DNA from: Promethearchaeota archaeon Loki_b32 | GTDB lineage: Archaea; Asgardarchaeota; Lokiarchaeia; Sigyniarchaeales; SOKP01 | Direction: 5' to 3' | Length of the DNA: 64,000 bases | Assembly (NCBI GenBank): GCA_005223125.1 | Contig: NJBH01000018.1 | Span: 1 to 64,000 of the forward strand | The notes under the pieces: generated by a model | The model's database searches: none | What the model was told of the DNA's origin: nothing | What the model saw: only the letters and a program-made list of their open reading frames with translations | Shown: positions 39,186 to 58,985 of the stretch, piece after piece | Numbering within the stretch: the stretch's first letter is position 1 | Layout: each line of letters begins with the position of its first letter | Made by a program: the position numbers and the translations under genes

Positions 39186-39818
39186 ATGGGAAAACTAAAA
39201 ATAGGAGCAATTGCATCTGGGTCTGGCTCAAATTTTGAAGCAATTGTTAACGCATGTGAAAAAGGAATATTGAAGAAGAAAGCGACAGTAGAAGTTTTAA
39301 TTTGTAATAAAGCGAGAGCTTATTGTATGGAGAGAGCTAAAAATCATAATATACCTTATGTTTTAATTGAATCCAATATGGAAGATGAGACTAGAGAAGA
39401 ATTCGACCAAAAAATGATAGATGTACTTGACAAATATGATTGTGAACTCATCGTGCTTGTTGGCTATATGCTTTTTGTTAGCGAAATGTTCATAAACCGT
39501 TTTAATGGAAATATTATGAATATTCATCCTGCCCTCCTTCCTAGCTTTAAAGGTATGCATGCCCATGAAGACACATTAGCCTATGGTGTTAAAGTCTCGG
39601 GGGTTACTGTTCATTTTGTTGATATTCATGAAGATCATGGACCTATTATCATTCAGAAGTGTGTACCCGTTTATGATACAGATACTAAGGAGACTTTAGG
39701 GCCCAGAATTCTAAAGTGGGAACATAAAGCATTTCCAAAAGCAATAGAACTTTTTTGTGATAAAAGACTTCATATCGAAGATCGAATAGTAAAGATTGAC
39801 GGTGAAGTTAAATTATAA
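39186..39818 (+). CDS. purN: phosphoribosylglycinamide formyltransferase
   Basis: SGSGSNF, NIHPALLPSFKG, GVTVHFV...D.GPII.Q. Confidence 0.95.
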   Translation: MGKLKIGAIASGSGSNFEAIVNACEKGILKKKATVEVLICNKARAYCMERAKNHNIPYVLIESNMEDETREEFDQKMIDVLDKYDCELIVLVGYMLFVSEMFINRFNGNIMNIHPALLPSFKGMHAHEDTLAYGVKVSGVTVHFVDIHEDHGPIIIQKCVPVYDTDTKETLGPRILKWEHKAFPKAIELFCDKRLHIEDRIVKIDGEVKL

Positions 39819-39838
39819 CCTTTATTAATATTACTTAA

Positions 39839-39939
39839 GGGAAATGATTTTTTAATGTGCTATCTGACCCAGCTGAAATTGATAACTTTACCATCAATTA
39901 AATGAAGAAGATCTTGAGTAGCGAGAAAAATCATTTCCC
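39839..39939 (+). ncRNA. candidate structured RNA with a 14-bp closing stem and a kink-turn
   Basis: Perfect inverted repeat GGGAAATGATTTTT/AAAAATCATTTCCC; inner GCTA/TAGC; CTGA-AATTGAT...ATCAATT-AAATGAAG. Confidence 0.5.
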
Positions 39940-40027
39940 GCTAATTTTCCTTTTATTAAAATCCTAAAATTTTAATCAAATTATTTATAATTCTAAATAA
40001 GTTTATAGAAAAACTTTTCATTGGATT

Positions 40028-42247: not shown

Positions 42248-43636
42248 CTAATTTTTAACGAATTTAATAATTTCATCTTTTATTTCATAATTTGGTAAGA
42301 CAAGATTAGTGAATCCTTTTTCTTTTGCGAATTTTGGCATAGCATAGAGGATACTTGTTTGTTCTGATTCGGCAATTGTCTTTCCGCCTACTCTTTTAAT
42401 TGCTCCTAATCCTTCAACGCCATCGGAACCCATACCTGTTAAAAGTATTCCCATAGCTCGATTTCTATAGATCTTAGCTGCAGAAAAAAACAAAACATCT
42501 ATAGATGGCATACAAAAATTAACTGGAGTTCCTTTATAGATTTTAATTAATGGCTTTTTGTTTTCTATAGAAATTTCCGTATGCATATCTCCAGGTGCTA
42601 TATAAACATAACCAGATTGAAGATAAACTCCATTTTGTGCTACTTTTACTTTTATATCGCATTCTATATTTAAATTATCTGCAAATGCCTCAGTAAAATG
42701 AGAAGATAAGTGTTGAACAATTAAAATTGGGGCATTAAAACCTCTAGGAATTTCTTTTAATATTGTAGTAAGTGTTCTTGGACCTCCTACACTTGCACCC
42801 ATAACAATTATATTTGAAGTTATTGTAGCTCCCTTAACAGGGGTAAGATCAGGAATATAAGCAGGTTTTTTCTTTTTAATTTGGACAGGAGAAATTGCTT
42901 TTTGCAATGTGGTTTTATCTTTCCTCTTTTTAAGTGATTTCGAAAGATTTATTGATTTTGCAGGCACTTTTAGACTATTATCATCCTCTTCTTTGACAGA
43001 AACTGTGCTTGTTTTACTTGAAGACTCATTTACGACTTCTGGTTTAGTTTCTTCCTTGAGAATTGCTTTAACTTTCATTAATTCAAATGAATCTTTTTCT
43101 TGTTCATCCTCAATTTCTTGAATAGGTTGTAATCGATTAAGGTATTGACCAAAATCAAAAATTCTATCAACTATTTCTTGGCGTAGAGTTCTACTCTTTT
43201 TTAATACACTTTCTTCTTTCCTGAAAATTCTTTTAATTTGAGATTGTGAAGCCAATAATACCTTAGCTAGCAATTCTTCACGAAACATAGGTAAATCTTT
43301 TGCACCTATTCCTCCAGGTTTTATAATATAATCAAATGCCCCCATTAAGAGAGCCTGAATGGAGGAATCTAAATTTTTAGGGCTGATAGCTGAAAGTATA
43401 ACTGTAGGAGTTGGGTGTTCTTCCATAATCAATTTGAATGCGTCAAGTCCGTTCATTTTAGGCATTACTAAATCTAAAACCAAGACATCTGGGCTATATT
43501 TTTTAACATATTCAACAGCTTCCTTTCCATCCTTTGCAAAGTCGACAATGTTAACTAAATCATGCTCTTTAAGAATATCTGCTATGTTTTTTCGTAAATA
43601 AGCAGAATCATCGGCAATAACTACATCAATCGTCAA
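42248..43636 (-). CDS. cheB: chemotaxis methylesterase CheB, long-linker copy
   Basis: Receiver DD...DLVMP...KP; esterase GASVGGP, VQH, LTGMGSDG. Confidence 0.93.
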   Translation of the reverse strand: MTIDVVIADDSAYLRKNIADILKEHDLVNIVDFAKDGKEAVEYVKKYSPDVLVLDLVMPKMNGLDAFKLIMEEHPTPTVILSAISPKNLDSSIQALLMGAFDYIIKPGGIGAKDLPMFREELLAKVLLASQSQIKRIFRKEESVLKKSRTLRQEIVDRIFDFGQYLNRLQPIQEIEDEQEKDSFELMKVKAILKEETKPEVVNESSSKTSTVSVKEEDDNSLKVPAKSINLSKSLKKRKDKTTLQKAISPVQIKKKKPAYIPDLTPVKGATITSNIIVMGASVGGPRTLTTILKEIPRGFNAPILIVQHLSSHFTEAFADNLNIECDIKVKVAQNGVYLQSGYVYIAPGDMHTEISIENKKPLIKIYKGTPVNFCMPSIDVLFFSAAKIYRNRAMGILLTGMGSDGVEGLGAIKRVGGKTIAESEQTSILYAMPKFAKEKGFTNLVLPNYEIKDEIIKFVKN

Positions 43637-43710
43637 ACAAAACTCCTATTTGTATTTAATTAATTATTCTTATAAATAGTAAAGTGAGGAAATTTATACG
43701 TTACTAAAAG

Positions 43711-44667
43711 CTAAAAAAGATTTGATATAAGAAAAGTAAACAATTCATCAATACCCTCTCCAGTAAATGCTGATGTCTCAAAAAAGGGTATATTGTATTG
43801 ATCTGCTAAATTTTGTGCTTTCATATTTATATCTTCAAGATTTTCAGCTAGATCTATTTTATTTCCCACAAGAATGTGAGGAATTGCTCTATTTCTTAAA
43901 GAGTGTTGTGATTCTTCGATCCAATCAGGGATTTTAGCTATAGTGTCTGATTGTGAGTAATCAAATAAAATTAGAACTGCATCTGAGTATTCGTAATAAA
44001 ATCTACGGATTTTAGCAAAACTTCTTGCACCACCTAAATCAAAAATATATAATTTTAAATTATAATCTTTTAAGATTTGTAGCTCTTTCTCTAGAATTGC
44101 AATTCCAATCGTGGGTTTGTAAACCCCATTTTCTTTAAAATTGTCCCCACAATACATTCTAGCTAATTTTGTTTTTCCCACCGTTTCAGATCCCACAAGT
44201 GTTATCTTTCTTACATTATTTTTATTATATTCCTCAGCAGGTAGAATTAGTTCCCCTTCATTATCCAATTTTGGAATTTGTAATGAGGTGTCATGATTAC
44301 TTAAAATTGATGAGATCTTTTCTGCTACTATATATGAATAGGGAATGAATTGATCAATATTGTTAGAATGATCTGCTACTAAAACGAAAATTGCGGGAAT
44401 ATTATTTCCTAATTCCATATAAAATAATTGAAAATCATTAGTATCAAAAGTACCACTTCCGAATGATGTTTCTGCATACCTCTTGATCTTATTTATGGTT
44501 TGATCTAAGATTGCCATAATTGCTCCAATTAATTCTTCATCAAATCCTTTTACTGAAGATCGAGCTATTATTAAACCATCTAAATCAACTACTAAAGCAG
44601 CTAGGAGATTTTGCGCTTCTTTTAGTAATTTATCTAATAATTCTTCTAACTTGGATACTTTTGACAT
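43711..44667 (-). CDS. roadblock domain fused to a Rab/Ras-like small GTPase
   Basis: N-terminal AALVVDLDGLIIA...DEELIGA; G1 GSETVGKT, G2 YKPTIG, G3 DLGG, G4 NKID, G5 ETSA. Confidence 0.88.
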   Translation of the reverse strand: MSKVSKLEELLDKLLKEAQNLLAALVVDLDGLIIARSSVKGFDEELIGAIMAILDQTINKIKRYAETSFGSGTFDTNDFQLFYMELGNNIPAIFVLVADHSNNIDQFIPYSYIVAEKISSILSNHDTSLQIPKLDNEGELILPAEEYNKNNVRKITLVGSETVGKTKLARMYCGDNFKENGVYKPTIGIAILEKELQILKDYNLKLYIFDLGGARSFAKIRRFYYEYSDAVLILFDYSQSDTIAKIPDWIEESQHSLRNRAIPHILVGNKIDLAENLEDINMKAQNLADQYNIPFFETSAFTGEGIDELFTFLISNLF

Positions 44668-44712
44668 ATATTATTCTTCTTTTTGTGCGGTTTTTAATTT
44701 AAATTATCTCAT

Positions 44713-45366
44713 TTAAAGATTGAGATCATATTTTAAGTTTAAAATATTAAATAGTCTTTTTAAGATATTAATAGAGGGGATAAGGCAAATAGTCCCTTCT
44801 AAATTTATATCTGAAACTGTTAATTTTGTATTTATTACTATCATTAAGTCCGATATTTGAGAATATTTTGCAATTATCCCTTCTAATATGGCATTTACTG
44901 TATCAATTGCAATTTTAGGAACATTTGGGACCAGTTTAGTGGATAATAAATCTGCTAAAGCATTTGTATAATGTCCTGATAAAATACTTCCTATTTCGGC
45001 TATGATGCTACAAGAAAAATCATCTAAATCATCAATAGATTTTAAATCTTCAATGGAAATTTTATTAAAGTCAGATAATATATTAATTAGATTAAGAATT
45101 GACTCTTTTGTAAAAATCTGAATAATTGCTAAATCTGAATTAAAGGGTATATCAGAAAAGATTCCTACCATATCAACATAAGGGTTGACAAAAAGATCTG
45201 GAACTTTCCAAAAGGAAATGATGTCTGCAGATGTTAATGAAACTTCAATTTTACCACTAATTAATTTTGAGAGTGCTGTGATAGCATGGCCAGACCCTAT
45301 ATTTCCAAGTTCTTTTAACATATCTAATTGATCTTGTGTTAATTTTATATTAACCGAATCATTCAT
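44713..45366 (-). CDS. cheC: CheY-P phosphatase CheC
   Basis: DMLKELGNIGSGHA.TALS; second site EIGS. Confidence 0.9.
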   Translation of the reverse strand: MNDSVNIKLTQDQLDMLKELGNIGSGHAITALSKLISGKIEVSLTSADIISFWKVPDLFVNPYVDMVGIFSDIPFNSDLAIIQIFTKESILNLINILSDFNKISIEDLKSIDDLDDFSCSIIAEIGSILSGHYTNALADLLSTKLVPNVPKIAIDTVNAILEGIIAKYSQISDLMIVINTKLTVSDINLEGTICLIPSINILKRLFNILNLKYDLNL

Positions 45367-45419
45367 GGTCCTTCTCCTCTTTTTTGATTCCTCTTTAAAT
45401 TTTTATATTAGTATAATTT

Positions 45420-45965
45420 TTAACTAGTTATTTTTTTAAAATTTGATTCTCTTGTTGATTTAACATAAACGGAGAAATCTTTAGTATCAAATATAACAGC
45501 TCTCCCCTCAGATCCTCCTGTATTCTCTCCTATAATTTTGATTTCTAATTTTTCTAATTCTTTTTTGATTGCTTCAGTGTTATTAATACCCATAAAATTC
45601 TCATCTAAATCAAAAATTTTTGAGCCTCCAACAATAATAGCCTTTATATTCTTCCTCATAGCTCCATGATTTATTAATTCTTGAATTAATAATTTTGCAG
45701 AGAGATCAGCATATTTGTGGGGAAAATTTATTGTTTTGTTTTGACGAGATTTAGGAAGTAATATATGAGACATTCCACTTACATTATTTTTGTTATCAAA
45801 AAGAATTAGAGCAATACAAGAACCTAATCCATAGATTGATATTTTTGGATCAACATTGTTAATCCTTTTTTTACAATTTATTATAGCATAATGCCCCATG
45901 GGTAAGAAAATTTCACCATTTTTATCTGATTTTTCAATACATCCATGGGGTTTTATCTTTTTCAC
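45420..45965 (-). CDS. cheD: chemoreceptor glutamine deamidase CheD
   Basis: GLGSC, GMSHILLP, KYAD, GGS..F, IGINN-like segment, TGG..GR. Confidence 0.9.
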   Translation of the reverse strand: MKKIKPHGCIEKSDKNGEIFLPMGHYAIINCKKRINNVDPKISIYGLGSCIALILFDNKNNVSGMSHILLPKSRQNKTINFPHKYADLSAKLLIQELINHGAMRKNIKAIIVGGSKIFDLDENFMGINNTEAIKKELEKLEIKIIGENTGGSEGRAVIFDTKDFSVYVKSTRESNFKKITS

Positions 45966-45989
45966 CTTTAAATTTAAAAAGTCTAATTA

Positions 45990-47135
45990 TTAATTTGATA
46001 TGTTAATTTCCTTTTTTCTTGCGTATTTTATCATGTGATCTTTAACTTCATAATTTGGGACTACTATATTCGCAGCTCCTCTTTTTACAGCTGCTTTAGG
46101 CATACCATAAACAACACATGTTTGCTCTGATTCTGCAATTGTTTTACCTCCCTCTTTTTTAATCGCTTCTAAGCCGGCAGCACCATCTTCTCCTAAACCA
46201 GTCAGTAAGATTCCTAGTATTTGATTTTTATATACTTCTGCTGCGGATAAAAATAATACATCAACCGAAGGCATACAAAAATTTACAGGTTCTCCTTTAA
46301 AGGTTTTTATACATGGTTTATTATTTCTTTGTATAACCTTCATATGTTTTCCTCCTGGACTAAGATAAGCAATTCCAGGAAGGATTTCTTCCCCATTAAC
46401 GGGAATTTTAATTTCGATATCGCAAACTTGATTTAAAGATTTTGAAAGTTCTTTCATAAAAAATGGATCTAAATGTTGAACGATTAATATTGGAATTGAA
46501 AAACCTTTCGGAATTTCTTTTAATATTGATTTTAAAGTTCTGGGACCACCAGTACTTGTTCCAATAACGATAACATTGGATTTTATTTTACTTTTTTTAA
46601 TAACTCTTTCTTTTTGAACCTTATCAATCTTTTGTTTTAGTCTTGTGCTTGTCTGATAATGTTCGATATTAGAATCGAATGAAGGAGGTTTCTTAACTGA
46701 TTTCTTAATTAATAAATTTCGCTTTTCATAAGTTTTTTTTATTTTTCCAGCATATAGGGTACTAGAAATTAATTTTTCTTTTAACTTCGGGAATTCTTCT
46801 TCCCACAATCCTTTTGGTTTTATAATAAAATCGAAAGCTCCTAAAAGCAAAGCTTGGATAGAATCATCTAATGTTTCTGGATTTTTAGCTGAAAATATTA
46901 TCGTAGGTATTGGATAGTGTTCTGAAAGGAATTTGAATACCGTTATCCCATCGACTTCGGGCATCATTAAATCTAAAATTAATACATCAGGATTAAATGT
47001 TTCAACTTTTTCAATTGCTTCTCTTCCATTCCTGGCAAGTTCTACACTTGCAATTTCATTGTTTGACAATAACATATCAGAGATTACTTTTCTTTGAAAG
47101 CTTGAATCTTCCGCCACAAGAACTTTAATTGATAT
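45990..47135 (-). CDS. cheB: chemotaxis methylesterase CheB, second copy; probable ATA start
   Basis: GTSTGGP, VQH, LTGLGEDG; the in-frame ISIKVL upstream of the track start (47117) completes receiver strand 1. Confidence 0.92.
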   Translation of the reverse strand: MSIKVLVAEDSSFQRKVISDMLLSNNEIASVELARNGREAIEKVETFNPDVLILDLMMPEVDGITVFKFLSEHYPIPTIIFSAKNPETLDDSIQALLLGAFDFIIKPKGLWEEEFPKLKEKLISSTLYAGKIKKTYEKRNLLIKKSVKKPPSFDSNIEHYQTSTRLKQKIDKVQKERVIKKSKIKSNVIVIGTSTGGPRTLKSILKEIPKGFSIPILIVQHLDPFFMKELSKSLNQVCDIEIKIPVNGEEILPGIAYLSPGGKHMKVIQRNNKPCIKTFKGEPVNFCMPSVDVLFLSAAEVYKNQILGILLTGLGEDGAAGLEAIKKEGGKTIAESEQTCVVYGMPKAAVKRGAANIVVPNYEVKDHMIKYARKKEINISN

Positions 47136-48156
47136 TTAAGTCCCCCTCTTTTATATATATACGATTATATGAATCTATCAGCTTTAAGTCTCCCTGAAAG
47201 TTATTTAAAGCTTCAGTTTTCCCTAAGATTAACAGACCACCTGGATTCAACCTGTTTCTAAGAATATTTGAAAATTCTTTACGTGTTCTTCTACTAAAGT
47301 AAATTAAAAGATATCGACAAAAGATTATATCATACGTTAAAGAAGTTTGATGCCCTCTCGTCACATCCTCTTCAATAAATTCAACCTGATTTTTAATTTG
47401 CTTATTTATTGAATAAGTATATCCAAAATTTTCATTTTCTTTATTAAAATATTTATTTTCATAAAATTTTGAAACACTTTTTGTGGAATCTTCATTATAT
47501 ATCCCTTTTTTTGCTCTATTTATAGCTTCTCTATCTATATCTGAAGCAATGATTCTAAATTGCGGAAATTTAGGAATTTGATTTTTGAGATTATCTAAAA
47601 TCATTGCAATCGAATAAGGTTCTTCACCATTAGCACATGGACATGACCATATATTAATATGTCTTTCAGATTCTGAAGGATTCCATATTTTTCTGTATAA
47701 TGAAGTTTGGTATAAGATTTGATTAATTGAATGTTTTCTAAATTTTTTTGGATTCTTATATCTATTTTGAGAATTCATAGAATCTTTTTTCGTTCTTACT
47801 CTATATTGTCTTTCTGGATTAGGAGTTAAATCACTTATAATATCTCCATTTTTTAGGTATAAAGCAGATAAAAATATCTTTTCAAATTGCCTAAAGACTT
47901 CCCAATTTCTAAAAAAAACAGAATAATTAATATTAAAACAATCAAAAAATTTATTGGTTTCTGAAGAGTTTTCTAACAGATAATTATAGTAAGATTCAAG
48001 AGTACCGCAATTAACACGAATCATTCTTGATTTGATTCTTTTTTCAATAAATTTTTTTCGATAATAATCCAAATTCAATCCAGTAGAATTCATTAAAAAG
48101 TGAATTAGAGGCTCATAATAATCCGAATCAAATCTAATATCATCAATTCGTATCAC
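47125..48156 (-). CDS. cheR: chemotaxis methyltransferase CheR, divergent, with a basic insertion
   Basis: FFRN, IWSCPCANGEEPYS, IIASDID, YDIIFCRYLLIYF, PGGLLILGKTE. Confidence 0.9.
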   Translation of the reverse strand: MIRIDDIRFDSDYYEPLIHFLMNSTGLNLDYYRKKFIEKRIKSRMIRVNCGTLESYYNYLLENSSETNKFFDCFNINYSVFFRNWEVFRQFEKIFLSALYLKNGDIISDLTPNPERQYRVRTKKDSMNSQNRYKNPKKFRKHSINQILYQTSLYRKIWNPSESERHINIWSCPCANGEEPYSIAMILDNLKNQIPKFPQFRIIASDIDREAINRAKKGIYNEDSTKSVSKFYENKYFNKENENFGYTYSINKQIKNQVEFIEEDVTRGHQTSLTYDIIFCRYLLIYFSRRTRKEFSNILRNRLNPGGLLILGKTEALNNFQGDLKLIDSYNRIYIKEGDLNIN

Positions 48157-48167
48157 TTCTAAACACT

Positions 48168-48713
48168 TTATTTTCCTAATAGTTTTTCAATTTCAGCAAA
48201 ACGTCGCTGCATATGATCCATTGAATACTTTATATGCATTTGTATTTCTTTAATCTCAGATAAAATCTTTCTAATATGAGATTTCGTAGATTTTGATAAC
48301 GCCAAATCACCTTCTGATATTTCTGATTCTATAATTTGGCTTGGCGTAAATTGCAACCCATAAGTTTGTGAAGATTCAGTTTTATATCTGGATTGTCCGG
48401 GATAATTCAGATTAACTCTATTTTCTTTAATTTCATTAAAAATCGGATGAAAATCTTCTGGTTCAATACCTTGTTTAATGACTTCATATTTGAAGTTATA
48501 AAATTTCTTTTTAGTTTTGAGTTTTCCCGCGAAGTTTGCTGCCATGTAGCGGTGAAATAAACGAGAATGACTACCTGCCCATATCCAAATAAGTTTTAAT
48601 TTCTTATCTACAATTAAATACACACCATTAGGATCAAATATTTTCTCAGGTCTAAGTTTAAGTGTTTCACCTTGCACTTCGTAAATATAGTCATAATAAC
48701 CGCTTTTTAACAT
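48168..48713 (-). CDS. single gelsolin-domain protein with a C-terminal helix/coiled coil
   Basis: FDPNGVYLIVD....IWIWAG..S....RYMA...A..L and VIKQGIEPEDF match the gelsolin repeat consensus. Confidence 0.78.
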   Translation of the reverse strand: MLKSGYYDYIYEVQGETLKLRPEKIFDPNGVYLIVDKKLKLIWIWAGSHSRLFHRYMAANFAGKLKTKKKFYNFKYEVIKQGIEPEDFHPIFNEIKENRVNLNYPGQSRYKTESSQTYGLQFTPSQIIESEISEGDLALSKSTKSHIRKILSEIKEIQMHIKYSMDHMQRRFAEIEKLLGK

Positions 48714-48835
48714 GGGTTTTTTAACCTATTGATTTTTGGTGTTTTATAAAGGTTTATATTTATTTTGGAGATTCTTGCTTTATTTTTGAAATATTTAAAA
48801 AAAATATTAAATATGGATTACTTTTAGTAGGTTTC

Positions 48836-50821
48836 TTATGAATAAAACTTTAAAAGTGCATCCAATAATTCATGTAAAGTTTCTAAGCTTGGAATAAATA
48901 AAAATGTACCAGTAATTTTTATATCTGTAATAAGAACACTTGTAGTGATTACCAGCGATAGCTTCTTAAGTAATCCAATTTCTTCTTTTAGGATCTTAAA
49001 CAACTGAGATCCCGTATCAACGGACATGTCTGGAGGCTCTGTCATTAGACGTAACCCTAATAGATCGCCTATTGCACTCACGTAATGACTACCTAAAATA
49101 TGACCCAGTTCAGAGATGGCACTGCGATAAAGTTCTGGAAAATCAGAAGACTTGTTAATTTTCTTTCTCATATCGATTTGTTTCTTGTCTCTATCATCTA
49201 CTATTATTGACGTTATATCTACTGCATCATTTATGTTAAATATTGTTAGGACAGTAGCTCGCGTTTTACCAACAACATTACTCCATGCGACCAAAAGTTT
49301 TTCATTCTTTTTACTAATGTTATTGGCATATTCATCTAATTCAACCATCTCTACTGTTGGAACATTTATATCTACTCTTTTATTGATCATTTGAGCTAAT
49401 GCATTTGCAGCATTTCCTGCACCAATATTACCGACTTCTTGTAAAGCATCTCTTTGAACTTCTGTAAGCTGTATTTTATCAATATCTAACATCTCTGGTA
49501 ACTCCTTAGGCTTCCTCGTCCCTATAGCTATTTCATGCTCTATTCCTAATTTATTAAAAAATGATTTTAAAGTTTGAAGATCTGGTATAAAGAAGAACAT
49601 ACCTTTTAGTTTCAAATCAGCTACTGAGATAGACGTTTTAATTACTATAAAGAATTCAGCAACCGATTTTAGTTCTTTAGAGAGAAATTCTCCAATTTCC
49701 CCAGCTTGACTCATTGTAAATTCAGGAACGTCAATCATTAATTTTGTACCTAATAAATCAGCCAATGCCGAAGCATAATGTCCTGCCATGATATTTCCCA
49801 TTTCAACAATAGTGGAAACTGCATAATCATCAAGATCCTTCTTAGATTTAACCTTATTTGGGTCTATTTTTGATTTATTTCCTGCTAAATCTGCAATCAT
49901 CTTCATTAATGGTTTCATTTCAAATATATTTAAGATAGTTGCTTGAGATGGTTTTTCTATATGGCAAAAGATCCCACACACTTTCTCTTTAGGTCCACCA
50001 AATTGTGCAGGTAATTCTTCTAGAGGTATAATTCCTACATCTGTAAGAGTAACATCAATTTTCTTTTTGACCAATCGAGATAAGGCTGTGACTGCATTTC
50101 CAGTACCAATATTTCCAATTTCTTTAAGCATATCTTGCTGTTCATCTGATAATTCAACCTCCCTTTGTTCCACTTCTTCTGGAATAGCCGTTAACTTCAT
50201 TGAAGGTTGGATTTTCTGAGGGATTATAACCGTTGAATCAACATCTGCTTTAGTTTTTGGTTTAGCTTTTGATTTAGGTTTTACTTTAGGTCGTTCAAGA
50301 ACTTTTGGTTTTAGATCTTCTTTTTTCTCTACTCTTGAGCCTAAAGATTTGATATAGGGTTTAATTAAAGCTTCCAAATCTAATAGTATTAGTGTTTCAT
50401 CCTGAAAAATACCAGTTAATTTTATTAATCTGAAATCAATATTGGTTTTTACAATAGTACCCTGTCTTTTGAAGATTGAGATTGGAAAATCTTTAACTCC
50501 TATTACAGCATCTACTAATAAAGCAATTTTTAAATCCTCATACTCTAAAACTAAAATTCGTGAAGTGCTAGTTAATCTATAATCAACATCATTACCATGA
50601 ATATTGTGTCTTAAAGAGATGATAGAATAAATCTCTCCTCTTATATTAATAATGCCAACTATAGATTTTTCTGCTAACGGAACTGGAATGATTTTTTCTC
50701 CAGGAACATAAATTTCCTTTACATATTCCACTTCAATGAGATGTCTTTCATTAAGAACTTGAATAATTACAACATTTACTGTTTCTCCAAAATCAATATT
50801 ATCAGATTCAGTTTCTAACAT
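48836..50821 (-). CDS. CheW-CheC-CheC fusion protein
   Basis: CheW (PVP.....IVGIINIRGEI), K/P-rich linker, two CheC units (DMLKEIGN/EMGN and DALQEVGN/ELGH). Confidence 0.88.
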   Translation of the reverse strand: MLETESDNIDFGETVNVVIIQVLNERHLIEVEYVKEIYVPGEKIIPVPLAEKSIVGIINIRGEIYSIISLRHNIHGNDVDYRLTSTSRILVLEYEDLKIALLVDAVIGVKDFPISIFKRQGTIVKTNIDFRLIKLTGIFQDETLILLDLEALIKPYIKSLGSRVEKKEDLKPKVLERPKVKPKSKAKPKTKADVDSTVIIPQKIQPSMKLTAIPEEVEQREVELSDEQQDMLKEIGNIGTGNAVTALSRLVKKKIDVTLTDVGIIPLEELPAQFGGPKEKVCGIFCHIEKPSQATILNIFEMKPLMKMIADLAGNKSKIDPNKVKSKKDLDDYAVSTIVEMGNIMAGHYASALADLLGTKLMIDVPEFTMSQAGEIGEFLSKELKSVAEFFIVIKTSISVADLKLKGMFFFIPDLQTLKSFFNKLGIEHEIAIGTRKPKELPEMLDIDKIQLTEVQRDALQEVGNIGAGNAANALAQMINKRVDINVPTVEMVELDEYANNISKKNEKLLVAWSNVVGKTRATVLTIFNINDAVDITSIIVDDRDKKQIDMRKKINKSSDFPELYRSAISELGHILGSHYVSAIGDLLGLRLMTEPPDMSVDTGSQLFKILKEEIGLLKKLSLVITTSVLITDIKITGTFLFIPSLETLHELLDALLKFYS

Positions 50822-50866
50822 TTTAATTTCCTCTTGTTTTTTCTCCTATTCCTTTTAAATAAATTA

Positions 50867-51715
50867 TTATTTTAACATAATTCCTTTCCAAATTAGTTCT
50901 ACTTCGGGTTCTTCCTCATTAACTTCTGTAAAAAAATCAATTTGTCTATAAACTGAAATTTGACCGCCTTTTGTATGTTTGAATGCATAATTTAACATAT
51001 CATCCGTCCTAGTAAAATTAAAACCCGCAAGTTTTAACTCTGAATCATTTACAATTATAAGATCTTCATTGTTAAAAGGACGATTTTCTTCAATCCATTC
51101 GACCCATATTTCAGGTGATAGTTCCTTGCTTATAATTTTGATTGGTTCGTCAAATGGTATATTACGGAATGATTTACCAGTTGCAAAAATAATTCTGTCA
51201 GGGATTAAGTTTTCTTTCTTAGCAAATTCATTCAATTTATTAAATGCCTTCTTATATTTACTCAATTCCAAAACATCATAGCATAGACATAAAATCACAT
51301 CTTTATCTTCCGTTTCAACAATAAAATCTATCACTTGATCTGGATTGGAATCTTGGTTAATTTTTATCGATTTTAATTTTAGATTTAACATGTATTTAAG
51401 GTATTGATAAAAACGCCATTTTAAACTTAATTTATCGGATTTTTCTCTACTTATGAAAATCTGAAACATATCTTTTAATTGTTTTATAGTTAATTTCGAT
51501 AAATCAGCTTTTTTTCCACTGTCATTCCCAATTACAACATATCCTTGATTTGACTTTACTTTTGAATTTTTCTTTTGCTTGGATGGTTCTGCTGCAACAT
51601 CTTGTAAAAACTTTTTCAGTTCGCTCACAGTGAAATGTGGTAAAACCTGCTCGATGAGATATAATAAATATTCCTTTGATTTATCATCCATCATTTCATA
51701 ATACTGTAGTTTCAT
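50867..51715 (-). CDS. hypothetical protein within the che cluster, possible degenerate PD-(D/E)xK-like fold
   Basis: 282 aa; VIDFIVETEDKDVILCLC; fold guess is weak. Confidence 0.55.
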   Translation of the reverse strand: MKLQYYEMMDDKSKEYLLYLIEQVLPHFTVSELKKFLQDVAAEPSKQKKNSKVKSNQGYVVIGNDSGKKADLSKLTIKQLKDMFQIFISREKSDKLSLKWRFYQYLKYMLNLKLKSIKINQDSNPDQVIDFIVETEDKDVILCLCYDVLELSKYKKAFNKLNEFAKKENLIPDRIIFATGKSFRNIPFDEPIKIISKELSPEIWVEWIEENRPFNNEDLIIVNDSELKLAGFNFTRTDDMLNYAFKHTKGGQISVYRQIDFFTEVNEEEPEVELIWKGIMLK

Positions 51716-51756
51716 TTTATTTCCTCCTTATTTTTTTTCTTAATTTTTTTAATTAA

Positions 51757-53784
51757 TTATCCGACGAAATATGATTCTAACTCTGAATATTTAGCTTCTT
51801 TTCCACTTATGCTTTTTAGATAATACATAATCTCTCTCTCTTGGTAGGGTAAAAGAGCATTAATTGTGAAAGAAATGTTTTGATCCCCATTCTTCTTTGA
51901 TTTACTAAGTTTATGTTCTATATTTGAGGAGATTAGTTCAAAAGACTCTGGAATAGTATCTGTAATATTCACGTCATTAAGTTTTATACTTGAACCATTT
52001 TTTGCTACAATGTAAATAGCAAATTCATTAGCACTCCTCCCTGGATATATTTGTTTTCCGACCATCACTTTCCGTCTTTTATGAGAAATGTTTATTGAAG
52101 ATTTCTCCTGATCAGAGAGATTATTCGTTATCATATAAAATTCTTTAATACCAGAATTTTTAAATCTTGAATAAAATGCAGAGACATTAAGTGGAAAATC
52201 ATAAGCTTTTTTATAATCGGGTGTCATAGCTTTGAGGGGATATTTCAATTCTAAGAAATCATCCACCTCAATCACTGATTTTAAAGCGCCATTTTTTAAA
52301 TTAATGTTAAGTTCGATAGTATGCTCATGAGTTGGATCTTCATCATCAGGCTTTAAATTCAATTCAATTTCTCCTATGTTTAGTTTACCAGATGATCTAG
52401 ACAATGTATAATCTGAAATATTTCTTGATGGTAAGAAATCTTCTGGTACCCTTTCTACAATTCGAAGACCGTTGATTGGAATAGTACCTTGATTATTTAT
52501 AATAATTTTAGAATTTAATACCGTTTCTTCAAATGATTTAATTTCTTCTTCTGATAATTTCTTTTTTAGAACAATATTAACTACTATAAAGAAACTATCA
52601 TCAAATCTCGAAGTAATCATTGAATTCTTTTCTGTTCTGTAATCAACTGAATATTCTACTTTTCTTGAAAATGTTGGTTCTTTTTCATCAACACAATCAA
52701 AAGATTCTGTCTTATATTTACCACGAGGATTAATTATTGCACTTCCTGAAGTTTTAAAATCTAAATCTAGGATTTTTGTAGTTTTAGATTTATCATATAC
52801 TAAAACTGAATTTAATTTCAATTTGAAATCACTATGATTCTCGAATATAAGTGAACATTGCCAATTATTTGGAGCGTGATTCTTCTCTGTTTTCTTAATA
52901 GCGTGCATTGCATGTGAATATGCTGAGAAATGGTTGATCTTTACTCCGGAAATTACTTTATTTGATAAGTTAAATGTTATTTCAATATTTCCAGTTTTAA
53001 TATTTTCTTTCTTTTTAGGGAATAATTTTGCTAGAATAGTAATTTCTACTTTTTCCCCAGGATTTAGATTATTTAAAGAGCAGTCTATAGAATTTCTAGT
53101 AACTTTAAATTCCTTACCTTTATTACTGTTAAATTCTAAATCGTAAAAATTTTCTGTAAATGATTTTTTAAACTTAATGTTTTCAAGTATAGAAGTTGAA
53201 ATATTTACAATATTAATTGAAAATTTCACCTTATTTTCTTTTCCTAATAATAGTAAATAATTCTTTTTATTACCTACTTTCAAGGTTTCATTTTCAATTA
53301 GATCCGACTCTTTATTATCATTTTTAAAGATTTTGATATCTTCACTAAGATTTTCTATATTTTCACTCACTTCTATTAAATCAGGTAAATCATCAGAATT
53401 GACAATTTCATATTTCAATACTTTATTTGAATTAGGCTCAAAAATCCCTAAATTTAGATTATTATCTGTCTTTTGATTATTAAATTGTGAGCCTGAAAAT
53501 TGTAAATTTGCATCCCAAATTCTGTCTTTAACAGAGTTATTAAAAATTGAAATATTTCCATTACCTGTGACTGCTTTTCTTGCTCCATCATTTTGATAAT
53601 GAAATTCCATAAACTCTTCATTTAATATCAATACTTCTGACATTGAACCTGTATAACTTGATTCAATTTTCTTTTCTCTGTGACTTTTTTGTATTAATTT
53701 ACCACCTTCCCTTATAGGGATACCAAGAAAATTTGGGCTAATTTTTGTCTTTAATTCGTCATGATCAATTTTTTTAAAACCCAT
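51757..53784 (-). CDS. beta-sandwich repeat protein (DUF11/Ig-like), apparently cytoplasmic
   Basis: Repeated N.G.....V.I.D.IP..F and I..L.P..... motifs; no signal peptide or TM segment. Confidence 0.6.
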   Translation of the reverse strand: MGFKKIDHDELKTKISPNFLGIPIREGGKLIQKSHREKKIESSYTGSMSEVLILNEEFMEFHYQNDGARKAVTGNGNISIFNNSVKDRIWDANLQFSGSQFNNQKTDNNLNLGIFEPNSNKVLKYEIVNSDDLPDLIEVSENIENLSEDIKIFKNDNKESDLIENETLKVGNKKNYLLLLGKENKVKFSINIVNISTSILENIKFKKSFTENFYDLEFNSNKGKEFKVTRNSIDCSLNNLNPGEKVEITILAKLFPKKKENIKTGNIEITFNLSNKVISGVKINHFSAYSHAMHAIKKTEKNHAPNNWQCSLIFENHSDFKLKLNSVLVYDKSKTTKILDLDFKTSGSAIINPRGKYKTESFDCVDEKEPTFSRKVEYSVDYRTEKNSMITSRFDDSFFIVVNIVLKKKLSEEEIKSFEETVLNSKIIINNQGTIPINGLRIVERVPEDFLPSRNISDYTLSRSSGKLNIGEIELNLKPDDEDPTHEHTIELNINLKNGALKSVIEVDDFLELKYPLKAMTPDYKKAYDFPLNVSAFYSRFKNSGIKEFYMITNNLSDQEKSSINISHKRRKVMVGKQIYPGRSANEFAIYIVAKNGSSIKLNDVNITDTIPESFELISSNIEHKLSKSKKNGDQNISFTINALLPYQEREIMYYLKSISGKEAKYSELESYFVG

Positions 53785-53840
53785 CTTATTTTTCCTCCAA
53801 GTTTTTCTTCATTTGATTCATTTATTATTTGTAAAAAAAA

Positions 53841-55913
53841 TTATTTTAACTTAGAAATTATATTTTCATTTAATTTATTTGAAATTATACTCAAAACATC
53901 GATTATTAGACATATTCCTCCTTCACCTGTAATTGAAGAGCCTAAAATATCTCGGGAATCAGAATAATTAGACTTGAAAGGTTTCACAACTACATCCAAT
54001 TGTTGAAGTTGTTTATCTGCGATAAATACTACCGAATTTTCCTCATCTCTTTGACACCATATAGCAATTTTTTTATAGGAATTCGTCGTGGATTTGTCTA
54101 CCATATTCAAATGTTCATCTAAATGAATTACTGGTAAAGATTTTGATTTAATTTTATAGTATTGTTCCCCTTCTATGTATTCAACCTGGTTTGGATTGTA
54201 AAAGTATATCTGTTTAATATTTTCAGTTGGAATCGCAAATAGGTCATCAGCAATCTGGATTAGTTGAGCTCTTAATATTGCTCTAGTAAATGGTACTTCT
54301 ATAGTAAATTTTGTACCGATATTTTTTTGTGATTGAATATTAAAATCACCACCTAATTCCTTTATTTTTTCTGCCATTATAGCTAAACCCATCCCTCTGC
54401 CTGAAAGAATATCCGCATCTGAAAGTGTAGAGAACCCAGGCATAAGAATAAATTGATGTAAATCCTCATCACTTAATTGTTTAGCATCCTCTGAGTTATA
54501 ATATCTTCTACTTACAACTTTTTCTCTTATTTTATCATAATTAATACCCATACCATCATCTTGCACCTCAATGAAAATTGATCCTGATCTTCGATATGTT
54601 CTTAATCTTAATGTTCCAAGTTCATTTTTCCCTTTTTTAACTCGTTCCCTTGGTGATTCGATTCCATGATAAATTGCATTCCGAATTAATTGGACTAATG
54701 GAGAATTGATTTCCTCTAAGATTTTTCTATCAATTTCAACATTAGTTCCTTCAAGAATTAGTCTCAATTTTTTACCAGTTTCATTTGCTACATCACGAAC
54801 TAGTCGTTTATATTTTCTAAAAGTAGATTCAACCCTAACTAATTTTAATTTGAAAAGTATTTCTTGAATATCTAGAAAAGGTTTATCCATTTTATCAATT
54901 AACCTTACTAATGTTCTGTCTTGTTTCTTCTTTAAAAGTTGATTGATGTGATTCTTCATTATTATTAGTTCTCCGAAATAGTTCATTAATTCCTCTAAAT
55001 GCTCGATGTTAACTTTAACACTCGTTATTTTAATATTGTCTTCTGAAAAGTCGCCTACAATTTCAGAAACTCTCTCAATTTCTTCAATGTCTTCTTCTTC
55101 ATCATAATCGTCTAAAAGTAACTCGCTACTCATAGATTCTGATTTTTCTGTTTCCCATTTTTCTTTAAGATCTGTAATAGTTTTTTTAAATTCTCCTGAA
55201 TTTAGTGGAGTAATAACTTTATTTTCTATTTCCAAAATCTCATCTAAAACCTGAGATATTTTATCTTTCTTATTTTGTGTGATATAATATATTTCAAACT
55301 CATTTCTAAGAGTAGCTTTTTCTAAATCTTCAGGCGCTGGATTGGTACAACAGATTTTACCATTTTCATTTAACGCTCTAAATATAATAAATAATCTTAC
55401 TTTTTTGAAAACACAGGTATCTTCAAGGCGAACATAAATCTTAAATGATTTATTTTGTTTTTGATTAAGAAGTTTAGTAATTTCTTCTTGGTTTAAAGAC
55501 TGAATAAAGGTGATATCATACACAGTCTCAAAACTCTCAAAACTATTTTTTATGTCTTCAACAAAATTTCCATCAATATCACTTAAATCTCCTTTTTTCA
55601 CTCGGTTTAAGAAATTTCTTAGCACATCAAGACTTTCAAATAACATACCAATGAAATTTTGTCTTTTGCTTTTAGATACTTTCTTCTCCTTAGCATTTTC
55701 CAAAAGAGATTCAAAATGATGGCAGAACTTAGACAGATTGTCAAAACCGGCCATTGCAGTTAATCCTTTCAATGTATGAAATGTGAAGAAAAGTTCTTTT
55801 ATTGGTTTAGAATTCTCTGGATTTTCTTCAAAAGATAGTATTTCTTCCTCTGTTTTCTGAATCAGATCTTCGGATTCACTTATAAAAAGTTTTATATCGT
55901 CTTTAGATGACAC
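53841..55913 (-). CDS. cheA: chemotaxis histidine kinase CheA (P1-P5)
   Basis: P1 FHTLKG, P2, dimerisation LMNYFGELII, RNAIYHGIE, DDGMGI, PGFST, SGRGMGL, CheW-like P5. Confidence 0.96.
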   Translation of the reverse strand: MSSKDDIKLFISESEDLIQKTEEEILSFEENPENSKPIKELFFTFHTLKGLTAMAGFDNLSKFCHHFESLLENAKEKKVSKSKRQNFIGMLFESLDVLRNFLNRVKKGDLSDIDGNFVEDIKNSFESFETVYDITFIQSLNQEEITKLLNQKQNKSFKIYVRLEDTCVFKKVRLFIIFRALNENGKICCTNPAPEDLEKATLRNEFEIYYITQNKKDKISQVLDEILEIENKVITPLNSGEFKKTITDLKEKWETEKSESMSSELLLDDYDEEEDIEEIERVSEIVGDFSEDNIKITSVKVNIEHLEELMNYFGELIIMKNHINQLLKKKQDRTLVRLIDKMDKPFLDIQEILFKLKLVRVESTFRKYKRLVRDVANETGKKLRLILEGTNVEIDRKILEEINSPLVQLIRNAIYHGIESPRERVKKGKNELGTLRLRTYRRSGSIFIEVQDDGMGINYDKIREKVVSRRYYNSEDAKQLSDEDLHQFILMPGFSTLSDADILSGRGMGLAIMAEKIKELGGDFNIQSQKNIGTKFTIEVPFTRAILRAQLIQIADDLFAIPTENIKQIYFYNPNQVEYIEGEQYYKIKSKSLPVIHLDEHLNMVDKSTTNSYKKIAIWCQRDEENSVVFIADKQLQQLDVVVKPFKSNYSDSRDILGSSITGEGGICLIIDVLSIISNKLNENIISKLK

Positions 55914-55942
55914 ATAATCACCTTATATCCTCATTATTTTAA

Positions 55943-56341
55943 TTAATTCTTCTCTGCTGTTTTAATTTTAAGTATACGGTCCATAACCTCTACAATTTGT
56001 TCAGTTTTGAATGGTTTTTGAATGAAATCTTTTGCCCCTTTTTTCGCTGCCTCAAGAACTAATGCCTCTTGACCTAGCGCAGAAACTACAACTATCAATG
56101 CTTTTGAGTTTATTTTTAGAATCTCCTCTGTTGCTTCAATGCCGCCCTTTTCTGGCATTACTAAATCCATAGTAACTAAATCAGGATTTAATTTTTTATA
56201 TAAGGAGATAGCCTCAACTCCATTTGAAGCTTCACCAATAACCTCAATTTGTTCGATTTTATTTATTATGTTTTTTAACATATTTCGTGTAAATTGGGCA
56301 TCATCAACAATCAAAACCTTTTTCTTTTCATTCTTTGTCAT
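55943..56341 (-). CDS. cheY: chemotaxis response regulator CheY
   Basis: VLIVDD, TMDLVMP, VSALGQ, FIQKPF. Confidence 0.93.
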   Translation of the reverse strand: MTKNEKKKVLIVDDAQFTRNMLKNIINKIEQIEVIGEASNGVEAISLYKKLNPDLVTMDLVMPEKGGIEATEEILKINSKALIVVVSALGQEALVLEAAKKGAKDFIQKPFKTEQIVEVMDRILKIKTAEKN

Positions 56342-56361
56342 ATTATCAACTCCTATTTATT

Positions 56362-56892
56362 TTATGTTAATGATGATAAATCTTGTTGGATTCTAAATTT
56401 ATCAACGTCACTAAAAATCTTGCTTAAATCAAGCATTACCCTTGGTCGTTCCTCAAAGTTAATAATTCCGTTAATAAATTCCATAGCAACACTCGTTTGA
56501 AAGATGGGACTCAATCCTACGATCTGAGTTGGGTCTACATGGTCTATACTAAGTATGGAATCGGTATAGAACCCAATTAAATCATTATCCATTTTAAGAA
56601 TTATGATAAAATTTTTCGAAGTACTTGAATCTTCTTCAAATGTGGAGTATTTTGAATGATATAGAACATACTGATCTAGATTCAATTTTTTCTTCAAGTT
56701 AATTACGTGAATAATTTCTCCTCGGTAATTATAGATGCCATCGATGTAGCCTAAGCTTTTGGGTAACTTTCTTATTAGACCTGCTTGAATTATTTCCTTT
56801 ACTTGATACAAATCAATGCAGAACTCTTCCCATCCAATCTGGAAAGATAGGATAGAAACTTGATCTTGTCCTTCATGTGCATTTATACTCAT
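56362..56892 (-). CDS. cheW: chemotaxis adaptor CheW
   Basis: F.IG.EEF.ID..QVKEII, LPKS..YIDGIYNYRGEII.VINL. Confidence 0.9.
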   Translation of the reverse strand: MSINAHEGQDQVSILSFQIGWEEFCIDLYQVKEIIQAGLIRKLPKSLGYIDGIYNYRGEIIHVINLKKKLNLDQYVLYHSKYSTFEEDSSTSKNFIIILKMDNDLIGFYTDSILSIDHVDPTQIVGLSPIFQTSVAMEFINGIINFEERPRVMLDLSKIFSDVDKFRIQQDLSSLT

Positions 56893-56912
56893 TTTTTTTA
56901 CCTACTTTTTCT

Positions 56913-57776
56913 TTAAATTATAAAATATTGGTTAATTTTACTTTCAAATTCGTTAAATGGAGTAACATCTCCATTAAATTCTTTTATATAATTGCGGAAA
57001 TCGAAAAGGAATTCGTCCGCGATAAGATACATATACCTTTGAAGTAATTGGTTCATATTTTCTACAAGAAAGGCAAAAATAACATTACTTTTTGATATAA
57101 CATAAAATTGTTGGTTCCCGAAGTTAATCTCTTTAAGTTTTGCTCCAGTTTCCTCTCCAATAATTGTATTTGAGAAGGATAATAAAGCTGAGATAAATCC
57201 CCCAATGTGAACTTCGTGATCAGCAATATTAGATCGTTTTTTATTAATTTTTGATATAAATGGACTTCCTGTAGAACCAATTATAAATATTGCAATAACT
57301 CCATCAGTTTTTGGAATCTCAATCTCTGATTCAAAAAATTTGGTTATTTCTGATATTGGAACGTTTGAAAGAATTTTTTTATTAATCTTTTTGGATAAAA
57401 AGTATAATTTTGGGAAATTCACCGGAACAGTCGGTTCTTTTTCTTCCATGTATATGAATACTGATATATTTTTCTCTCCATTTTTAAAATATTGAATATG
57501 AATCGTAAAAGCATCCAATGGAATAATTGAATTCCCTTGTCTTTTACTTATTATTTCTTTTTTATATAATTCGAAGATATTCTGAATGAGTGAAATTCCA
57601 ATACCATTTTGAAATAGAACATTAAGCTTCCCCCCAGAGTCAAGTTCTGAGATATTTAACAAACCATAACCTAGTATATATAATTTTTCAGATGCGTTAT
57701 TTGAGTTTTGAGCTGCGTTATTCATGGCTATCATATTGCCTTCATGCTTTTTTTTAAGAAATTTTTTATTAATCAA
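56913..57776 (-). CDS. longin-like domain protein, first gene of the che cluster; true start may be a downstream ATG
   Basis: C-terminal AIFII.STG.P...IGGFISALLSFS...LKEINFG...EF...F...I.EFNGDV..F.EF pattern typical of Asgard longin domains. Confidence 0.65.
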   Translation of the reverse strand: MINKKFLKKKHEGNMIAMNNAAQNSNNASEKLYILGYGLLNISELDSGGKLNVLFQNGIGISLIQNIFELYKKEIISKRQGNSIIPLDAFTIHIQYFKNGEKNISVFIYMEEKEPTVPVNFPKLYFLSKKINKKILSNVPISEITKFFESEIEIPKTDGVIAIFIIGSTGSPFISKINKKRSNIADHEVHIGGFISALLSFSNTIIGEETGAKLKEINFGNQQFYVISKSNVIFAFLVENMNQLLQRYMYLIADEFLFDFRNYIKEFNGDVTPFNEFESKINQYFII

Positions 57777-58340: not shown

Positions 58341-58985
58341 ATGAATGCTCAAACTGGAATAAACCAAGGAAACGAAGAATTTTTAAAAGAGATTATAATT
58401 AGATGTCCACAATGCTCAACAAATAAAAAATTGAAGATTCCTAAAAAAGTTATTGATCAAAGTAAGCAATTAACTACAATATCTATTCCTTCAAATTTGT
58501 GCTGTGAACATAGTTTTCAAGCTTTTGTTGACAAAAATTTTATTGTTAGAGGTTATCAAAAAGTAGATTTTGAGTTTTCTCATATGGAATTTTATGAAAG
58601 CAGTGAGGGTTCTTATGATACGGAAGGTTTTACATCAAAACCAATTTTTCAACAAATAATCCAATTATTAAGAGATTGTATTGAAGATAAGGATATTCTA
58701 GGGTCGGGGATGTTTACAGTTGAAGGAAAAGTGTTGTATTCTTCACTGCCTCAAACAACTTTGTTTAATACAATTCGTGAATTTGAAGTCAGAAGCGAAC
58801 AACATTTGATTAGCTTAAAGAAAATGTATCTAGAGTTAGATAACAGTGAGAAGTTTATCTCAACTATAATTTCCTTTAATGGATTGAAATTCAATTTAGT
58901 GTTAATGTTTTCTTTTCGCACAAAATTTGGAATGGGCAATCTCCATATGCGCGATTTACTAAAAAAAATAGAGAAAATAAACTAA
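58341..58985 (+). CDS. Zn-ribbon plus roadblock/profilin-like domain protein
   Basis: CPQC...CCEHSFQAFVDKNF.VRGYQ, then ILGSGMFTVEGKVLYSSLP; ATG at 58341 preferred over TTG at 58290. Confidence 0.65.
   Translation: MNAQTGINQGNEEFLKEIIIRCPQCSTNKKLKIPKKVIDQSKQLTTISIPSNLCCEHSFQAFVDKNFIVRGYQKVDFEFSHMEFYESSEGSYDTEGFTSKPIFQQIIQLLRDCIEDKDILGSGMFTVEGKVLYSSLPQTTLFNTIREFEVRSEQHLISLKKMYLELDNSEKFISTIISFNGLKFNLVLMFSFRTKFGMGNLHMRDLLKKIEKIN

Follow-up and report, generated by a model that had tools for sequence, protein, structure and literature searches.

In this study, we analysed a window of 64,000 nucleotides, by which we mean the whole stretch of DNA investigated here (positions 1 to 64,000 of contig NJBH01000018.1, assembly GCA_005223125.1, from Promethearchaeota archaeon Loki_b32), and in particular one gene in it that encodes a roadblock domain and a small GTPase in a single polypeptide, hereafter the roadblock-GTPase. 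A preliminary description of this DNA had placed the gene inside an operon of chemotaxis (che) genes, and this location is confirmed here: the gene lies between cheC (44713-45366), from which it is separated by 45 nt, and a second cheB (42248-43636), which follows after 74 nt. The roadblock-GTPase architecture as such has already been published; what is new is a clade of these proteins that is without the catalytic glutamine and is built into the che operon. The gene and its parts are as follows.

43711..44667, minus strand: roadblock-GTPase fusion gene, an open reading frame of 318 amino acids plus stop
44299..44667, minus strand: N-terminal roadblock/LC7 domain of the MglB type, residues 1-123, assigned with AlphaFold2 and Foldseek
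44215..44298, minus strand: structured linker, residues 124-151, with an invariant Pro132 in a conserved [LI]P[KR][LF] motif seen in alignments
43714..44214, minus strand: Rab/Ras-like G domain, residues 152-318
44170..44193, minus strand: G1/P-loop GSETVGKT, with G159, G164 and K165 invariant in the family
44110..44112, minus strand: switch I Thr186 (G2), invariant
44026..44040, minus strand: G3 DLGGA, with Asp210 and Gly213 kept and Ala214 at the position of Ras Gln61
43852..43863, minus strand: G4 NKID, for guanine specificity, with N269, K270 and D272 invariant or nearly so
43768..43776, minus strand: G5 TSA, with S299 invariant

Homologues of the roadblock-GTPase number 329, and the orthologues among them are about 318 aa long and extend down to 44-48% identity; the close homologues all belong to Promethearchaeota/Lokiarchaeia records. 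Membership of the Ras superfamily is clear from the Pfam Ras match (PF00071) on residues 154-316, which has an E-value of 7e-32 and scores 110.7 bits against a cut-off of 21.6. The Pfam Robl_LC7 profile (PF03259) matches residues 9-54 only and at 22.9 bits falls 0.1 bit short of its cut-off of 23 bits; a precomputed PF03259 match is present on several of the orthologues. The full-length AlphaFold2 model, which was built on 114 orthologues, is compact (pLDDT 88.6, pTM 0.88) and shows a roadblock-type domain at residues 3-122, an ordered linker (pLDDT 84-89) and a G domain at residues 152-317. Both the Pfam positions and this model bear out the claim that the roadblock domain precedes the G domain, which is the reverse of the order in Rag/Gtr proteins. 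Modelled by themselves, residues 1-130 (pLDDT 84) show the roadblock topology of a helix, two strands, a helix, three strands and a helix, and a Foldseek search with these residues gave MglB (3T1S/1J3W) as the best match (TM 0.71, E 2e-7, probability 1.0), followed by LAMTOR2/3 and the MK-D1 Roadblock protein. In a profile search against the PDB, the roadblock proteins CvnB5 and Rv3364c were recovered weakly by the N-terminal domain (E 0.3-0.8); the top match in that search, a designed repeat protein, was rejected as a repeat artefact, and the Foldseek fold search was taken as decisive. An Atlas feature search with residues 1-128 gave scores that were all below 0.9 and one archaeal cluster with 11% Robl_LC7 members, which we treat as a lead only, and the VIA-align list for the full model was filled by G domains and says nothing on the roadblock part. 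As modelled, the N-terminal domain is thus a roadblock by fold, not by Pfam threshold.

For the G domain, the PDB profile search returned Rab39B, Rab23, Rab26 and the Thorarchaeota Rab 7EZB (E 1e-34 to 1e-32), and Rab27, Rab1 and Rab8 were nearest by Foldseek. The VIA-align Z-score was 24.9 for Rab3C (rmsd 2.1 over 167 residues) versus 19.4 for LokiRagO, 18.0 for RagD and 17.0 for MglA (5YMX). The G domain is Rab/Ras-like, and neither MglA-like nor Rag-like. In published trees the Asgard RasL proteins group with Rab/Ras/Rho/Ran as a whole and are not sisters of Rab (bioRxiv 10.1101/2024.02.28.582541). The protein ends in ...LISNLF, as do its orthologues, and the C-terminal Cys or prenylation motif whose absence had been claimed is indeed missing; the sequence likewise gave no noticeable sign of a membrane anchor, an amphipathic helix or a prenylation site.

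The nucleotide-binding motifs were located by translation and their conservation was assessed in alignments of 114 orthologues. The G1, G2, G4 and G5 motifs, which had been described as canonical, are all present, and G1, Thr186, DLGG, NKID and TSA are invariant or nearly so. It had also been claimed that switch II reads DLGGA and has no catalytic glutamine, and this holds for the clade as a whole: the position of Ras Q61, which is Ala214 here, is occupied by L/I/A/V/S/K/F/H across the clade, and none of the 114 orthologues has a glutamine there. In a hidden Markov model alignment with Rab39B and Rab23, the Leu or Ala of the family stands opposite the Gln of the Rab proteins. An arginine finger is not conserved either, the residue two before Thr186 being K/R/S/I/T/H. 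The genome that carries the window also encodes five paralogous roadblock-GTPase fusions, 29-36% identical, which are not che-linked and which have kept a WDxxGQ motif and a Rab-like GDGGVGKT P-loop; the glutamine together with the preceding Trp is lost in the che-type clade only. Since five paralogues of the same genome keep WDxxGQ, the loss of the glutamine is a derived trait of the clade. In the tree, the stem branch leading to the che-type clade is long (0.76), and conservation after it is tight. A roadblock loop of the form G-x-G-T-F-D-T was considered as a stand-in for the lost glutamine and was rejected, as the loop is common to all roadblock-GTPase fusions of the genome, including those with the glutamine. 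These five lie in the host genome (G000) at C48:50195-51145, C37:37779-38723, C21:40174-41115, C37:81844-82803 and C37:83572-84537, and two of them stand in tandem (520-530 aa).

The invariant Thr186 and Gly213, which are sensors of the gamma-phosphate, suggest a working conformational switch in which hydrolysis would be slow or dependent on a partner, a reading based on how Q61L-type mutants and Rap behave. Rap has Thr61, and RapGAP supplies an Asn thumb; Rnd and RhoH, which are without the glutamine, are constitutively GTP-bound. These proteins resemble the roadblock-GTPase in having a residue other than Gln at Ras position 61 with the other G motifs intact, but they are eukaryotic, single-domain and lipid-anchored.

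The association of the gene with che genes is conserved. Contig look-ups showed that seven of seven orthologues (50-73% identity) adjoin che genes, and a scan of species-representative genomes gave 32 orthologous loci (44-81% identity), in which che genes are adjacent on the same strand in every one of the 30 loci that are of the ~318-aa type and have usable flanks. Two apparent exceptions were dismissed, one (L042) being a 430-aa derivative of a long type and the other (L049) being cut by a contig end. Thus the che linkage of the orthologues, on which the preliminary description had staked its proposal, held in every one of these loci and contigs. Three arrangements were found, all of which hold the roadblock-GTPase at the 3' end of a che cluster. 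In the commonest, a full operon, the gene stands between cheC and cheB inside the block cheR-cheB-cheD-cheC-X-cheB, where X is the roadblock-GTPase; in the second, which is confined to a single clade, a GTPase-cheB pair is found about 20 kb from the core cluster; and in the third, the core cluster ends with the gelsolin-domain gene and the GTPase gene, the long cheB being located some 9 kb upstream.

Among 400 genomes of the phylum that were scanned, the orthologue is restricted to the class to which the window belongs, where it occurs in about 10 genera. Within 161 genomes of this class, a Loki-type CheA is encoded in 33 of the 34 genomes with an orthologue, and the lone genome with the orthologue and no CheA is 69% complete and has cheC beside the gene. 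Expressed the other way round, the orthologue is present in 33 of 47 CheA-positive versus 1 of 114 CheA-negative genomes; these are counts with no statistic attached, and since related genomes are not independent they overstate the signal. In about 10 genera, the roadblock-GTPase and the che cluster are inherited together, and the roadblock-GTPase is probably tied to the che system functionally, in one direction or the other.

The operon in the window was annotated by Pfam scans and by profile and structure matches, and those of its parts that bear on the interpretation are listed here.

42248..57776, minus strand: che operon, 14 genes on one strand
56913-57776, minus strand: longin-like first gene, 287 aa, no Pfam match
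50867-53784, minus strand: 675-aa DUF11/CLIPPER-like protein and 282-aa orphan, directly after cheA
48168-48713, minus strand: gelsolin-domain gene, 181 aa, with a single gelsolin domain and a C-terminal helix, between the cheW-cheC fusion and cheR
47125-48156, minus strand: cheR
42248-43636, minus strand: second CheB, with receiver and Ser-His-Asp motifs intact and an interdomain linker of about 165 aa rich in Lys, Glu and Ser

Read from 57776 to 42248, the order is longin-like gene, cheW, cheY, cheA, the DUF11/CLIPPER-like gene, the orphan, a cheW-cheC-cheX fusion, the gelsolin-domain gene, cheR, cheB, cheD, cheC, the roadblock-GTPase gene and the long-linker cheB, and orthologous loci repeat this order. 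The DUF11/CLIPPER-like protein and the orphan are present in every version of this kind of che cluster, down to about 40% identity, and a CheB with such a long linker is found in all related che clusters (frames of 430-566 aa). No form of the operon is without the gelsolin-domain gene, not even those that lack the roadblock-GTPase; the profile of its product matched an Asgard gelsolin (7C2F_B, E 2.9e-7) as well as 2DGel, villin and CapG, and a Pfam Gelsolin match was obtained for 12 of its 26 orthologues. An Atlas model of residues 154-287 of the first gene product matches a longin cluster of the Fuz/Mon1/HPS1 type (TM 0.79 by target), again as a lead only. The orthologues of this first gene align only from residue 8-15 on, and its true start may be Met15. 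Considering the loci alone, cheR is missing from many operons of related genomes that agree in all else (L021, L024, L026, L029, L032, L088, L092 and L095), where the gelsolin-domain gene is followed directly by cheB.

Elsewhere in the window, two proteins had been named as further roadblock neighbours. The stand-alone 117-aa protein at 9949-10302 (minus strand) is a true Roadblock/LC7 protein (Pfam Robl_LC7, 43.8 bits); the product of 58341-58985 is not detectably a roadblock protein, and its one match, to a zinc ribbon, is weak. The che cluster is adjoined by purN, an EF-2-like paralogue (729 aa, convergent on the operon end) and FttA, at 39186-42217 on the plus strand and 36859-38769 on the minus strand, the order of which is unchanged in most related genomes. 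The host genome, which is 95.5% complete, encodes four MCP genes and gave two weak matches to T2SSE-family ATPases, and neither archaellin nor CheF was found in it.

Based on these findings, we tentatively favour the view, with a probability of about 0.4, that the roadblock-GTPase is an accessory and dispensable output subunit on a side branch of a lineage-specific chemosensory system of the Lokiarchaeia type, directed toward a target other than a motor. The MglB-type roadblock domain is rigidly joined to the Rab/Ras-like G domain, in which all residues for binding of the guanine nucleotide and Mg2+ and for sensing of the gamma-phosphate are kept (K165, T186, D210, G213, NKxD and SA). The protein would bind GTP and hydrolyse it very slowly on its own, and switching it off would take a partner that provides catalytic residues in trans, as RapGAP or the TBC GTPase-activating proteins (GAPs) do. 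We know of no GAP for this archaeal protein. The roadblock domain would be a platform for docking or dimerisation and not a GAP in the manner of MglB. A phosphorylated receiver, either CheY or the long-linker CheB, or alternatively the receptor array, may set the nucleotide state or the location of the GTPase, and the GTP form would then recruit an effector that is not a motor.

A side-branch, non-motor output fits a genome that has no archaellin or CheF and whose che operon has a gelsolin-domain gene of its own. In the same direction, the gelsolin-domain gene is conserved in the operon and lies directly upstream of the GTPase gene in one of the arrangements. Proteins in which a response regulator receiver is fused to a roadblock domain (Response_reg-Robl_LC7) are known elsewhere (PMC4316618), and cultured Asgard archaea have been shown to crawl in an actin-dependent manner, in a paper that is silent on che genes and the roadblock-GTPase (PMC13716822).

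Several findings weigh against this reading. In most genomes the GTPase gene is found among the adaptation genes (cheR, cheB, cheD, cheC and cheB) and not beside cheY, and the pair of GTPase and long CheB as well as the pair of GTPase and gelsolin-domain protein each go back to about one rearrangement event, so that neither pair names a partner. The co-occurrence counts are inflated by kinship, as said above, and 14 of the 47 CheA-positive genomes are without the roadblock-GTPase. Three genus-mates share the entire operon except for the roadblock-GTPase, so that cheC is followed by the long cheB, and in one of the three (G206) the gap between these two genes (L088:7650-7808) still contains codons 1-53 of the GTPase gene (70% identical, E 5e-21), from which it follows that the gene was deleted there by a clean internal deletion that left the operon otherwise intact. 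The roadblock-GTPase is therefore dispensable to the che system, and both the longin-like gene and the long CheB persist in operons without it. In addition, Gln-less derivatives that are longer (430-460 aa), with some 120 additional residues at the C-terminus (L066:7939-9300 on the plus strand, L042 and L067) branch within the che-linked clade and have unrelated neighbourhoods, with a TPP enzyme or a radical SAM protein; being outside che clusters, they indicate that che neighbours are not needed for the fold to work. In the same order, a genome from a different family (G138; one contig of 6,035,313 bp) has two classical che clusters (L116 and L117), whose CheA proteins are 26-28% identical and which are without the longin-like, DUF11, orphan, gelsolin-domain and roadblock-GTPase genes, so that the order contains two or more kinds of che system.

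A more specific version of the output proposal, that the Che phosphorelay directly sets the state or location of the GTPase and that the GTPase together with the gelsolin-domain protein steers protrusion or crawling by Lokiactin, seems to us quite improbable.

Among the alternatives, the one that survives best is that the GTPase acts in the adaptation branch, where it would gate or localise CheC/CheD and the long-linker CheB according to its nucleotide state and so tune adaptation. This would be consistent with the commonest arrangement, which puts the gene between cheC and the long cheB inside the adaptation block, with the one clade whose GTPase-cheB pair stays together at a distance of about 20 kb from the other che genes, with the receiver Asp and the Ser-His-Asp motifs that can be read in the second CheB, and with an accessory and dispensable status, which is typical of parts of the adaptation branch. 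However, in another clade the GTPase gene comes after the gelsolin-domain gene and some 9 kb downstream of the long cheB, the pair-only arrangement belongs to one clade and counts as one event, the long CheB is kept in operons without the GTPase, and no known CheB/CheC/CheD system uses a GTPase. We therefore regard this role as possible but unlikely. A specific partnership between the GTPase and the second CheB, considered on the basis of the pair-only arrangement, was set aside as weak, given the single event and the retention of this CheB where the GTPase is absent.

In another model, the protein is a spatial organiser that carries no signal: a GTP-bound landmark, dimerised through its roadblock domain, would place or cluster the receptor array or mark a pole or protrusion. 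Ras-family GTPases with impaired hydrolysis are often long-lived marks of localisation, there is an analogy with polar small GTPases and with array positioning of the ParC/ParP type, and the dispensability of the gene would fit as well. Roadblock domains serve as dimeric membrane platforms in Ragulator and MglB (PMC10933270), and putative chemoreceptor arrays have been described in an Asgard cell with complex protrusions (PMC9834061). Against this, the protein has none of the noticeable membrane-targeting features named above, and the operon is without a positioning ATPase as a partner; moreover, the cell-biological observations were made in a species with che clusters that do not contain the roadblock-GTPase. 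In our judgement, such a purely positional role is rather improbable.

The preliminary description had proposed a one-chain switch like MglB-MglA, with either the roadblock domain of the fusion or the longin-like protein as GAP or guanine nucleotide exchange factor, and driven by the Che proteins as Frz drives Mgl. Part of this stands, in that the roadblock domain is closest in fold to MglB; the G domain, on the other hand, is not MglA-like (Z 17.0 vs 24.9). The compact full-length model, in which the domains probably touch, and the longin-like C-terminal half of the first gene product would also be in agreement with the proposal, and it is known that Frz acts on MglA/MglB via response regulators (PMC3441718, PMC4316618). 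However, MglB works by positioning the Gln and the Arg of MglA itself (Miertzschke 2011, cited in PMC10933270), neither of which is conserved here, and therefore a GAP of the MglB type acting in cis cannot work in the same way. The G-x-G-T-F-D-T loop, being shared with paralogues that keep the glutamine, is no replacement for it, and the longin-like gene stays in place where the GTPase has been lost. We consider a switch of this kind very unlikely, and the parallel with Frz-Mgl is best taken as an analogy.

The likeness to the MglA/MglB proteins of Myxococcus xanthus and Thermus thermophilus (3T12, 3T1S, 6IZW) consists in the combination of an MglB-like roadblock with a GTPase of the Ras superfamily and in the tie to a Che-like pathway, which in the case of Frz controls a non-flagellar behaviour. 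The Mgl proteins differ in that they are separate, with an MglB dimer per MglA, are encoded outside the frz operon, and include in MglA a GTPase with its own Gln and Arg finger, whereas the protein described here has neither, is a single Rab-like chain, is encoded inside a che operon and is archaeal. Rag/Gtr proteins and LokiRagO (8YL2, 2Q3F; Ragulator 6B9X) also combine G and roadblock domains in one polypeptide, with the roadblock domains as dimerisation platforms, but in addition to the reverse domain order they have a Rag-type G domain (Z 18-19.4) with the catalytic glutamine and a role in nutrient signalling, with no che context. The actinobacterial conservons (PMC13343842, PMC4316618; 3LEQ), which consist of the sensor kinase-like CvnA, the roadblock protein CvnB, CvnC and the MglA-type GTPase CvnD, are similar as operons that join two-component, roadblock and GTPase functions, and CvnB5 is among the few weak profile matches of the N-terminal domain; they differ in that the genes are separate, the GTPase is of the MglA group, the kinase is a membrane histidine kinase and not CheA/MCP, and the host is bacterial.

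The closest precedent comes from Asgard archaea. Fusions in both orders, RB-GTPase and GTPase-RB, have been predicted with AlphaFold2 in Prometheoarchaeum MK-D1 and Thorarchaeota (Tran, Akil, Senju and Robinson 2024, Commun Biol; PMC10933270), and the protein studied here shares with the published RB-GTPases the N-terminal roadblock and C-terminal small GTPase in one chain and the lack of an insert in switch II, as reported for this domain order. The published fusions were filed with the Rag-like GTPases and have no che context, whereas the clade described here is nearer to Rab/Ras (Z 24.9 vs 18-19), is without the glutamine and is inherited with che genes; MK-D1 itself has no che genes (PMC9834061). 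The Gln-bearing paralogues in the host genome are probably the counterparts of the published RB-GTPases. In the wider literature, che genes and putative chemoreceptor arrays were reported in Lokiarchaeum (Rodrigues-Oliveira et al. 2022; PMC9834061), and MglA/MglB, the conservons and Response_reg-Robl fusions were treated by Wuichet and Sogaard-Andersen (PMC4316618). Our literature search, which did not cover every journal, turned up no publication connecting a roadblock-GTPase with an Asgard che operon.

It is also conceivable that there is no functional link at all. That the gene is a trafficking or housekeeping GTPase carried along as the operon's hitch-hiker at its end, or else a static, non-cycling pseudo-GTPase scaffold, could be argued from the 63 small-GTPase matches in the genome, which make chance proximity common in Asgard genomes, from the loss of the gene with no visible effect on the operon, from the derived copies that work outside che clusters and from the constitutively GTP-bound state that Gln-less GTPases such as Rnd and RhoH can have, but it is highly improbable given that same-strand adjacency survives three operon rearrangements and about 10 genera, that an orthologue in the absence of che genes is a rare exception, that the invariant Thr186 and Gly213 argue for a working conformational switch, and that the five other paralogues keep the glutamine and are not che-linked, so that the clade changed on joining the operon.

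Many Asgard genomes, that of the window among them, have receptors and a full Che phosphorelay without archaellin or CheF, and the roadblock-GTPase is a concrete protein with which to test what these systems control, with the reservation that its gene is dispensable. Our findings also indicate that the small-GTPase paralogues of Asgard archaea are not all trafficking parts, one lineage having been taken into a signalling operon of the bacterial type. If the wiring from Che through the GTPase to the gelsolin-domain protein were true, it would mean that a prokaryotic two-component pathway is wired into a small-GTPase/actin module in the style of eukaryotes, and it would provide a living model for the control of directed, cytoskeleton-driven movement before eukaryotes.

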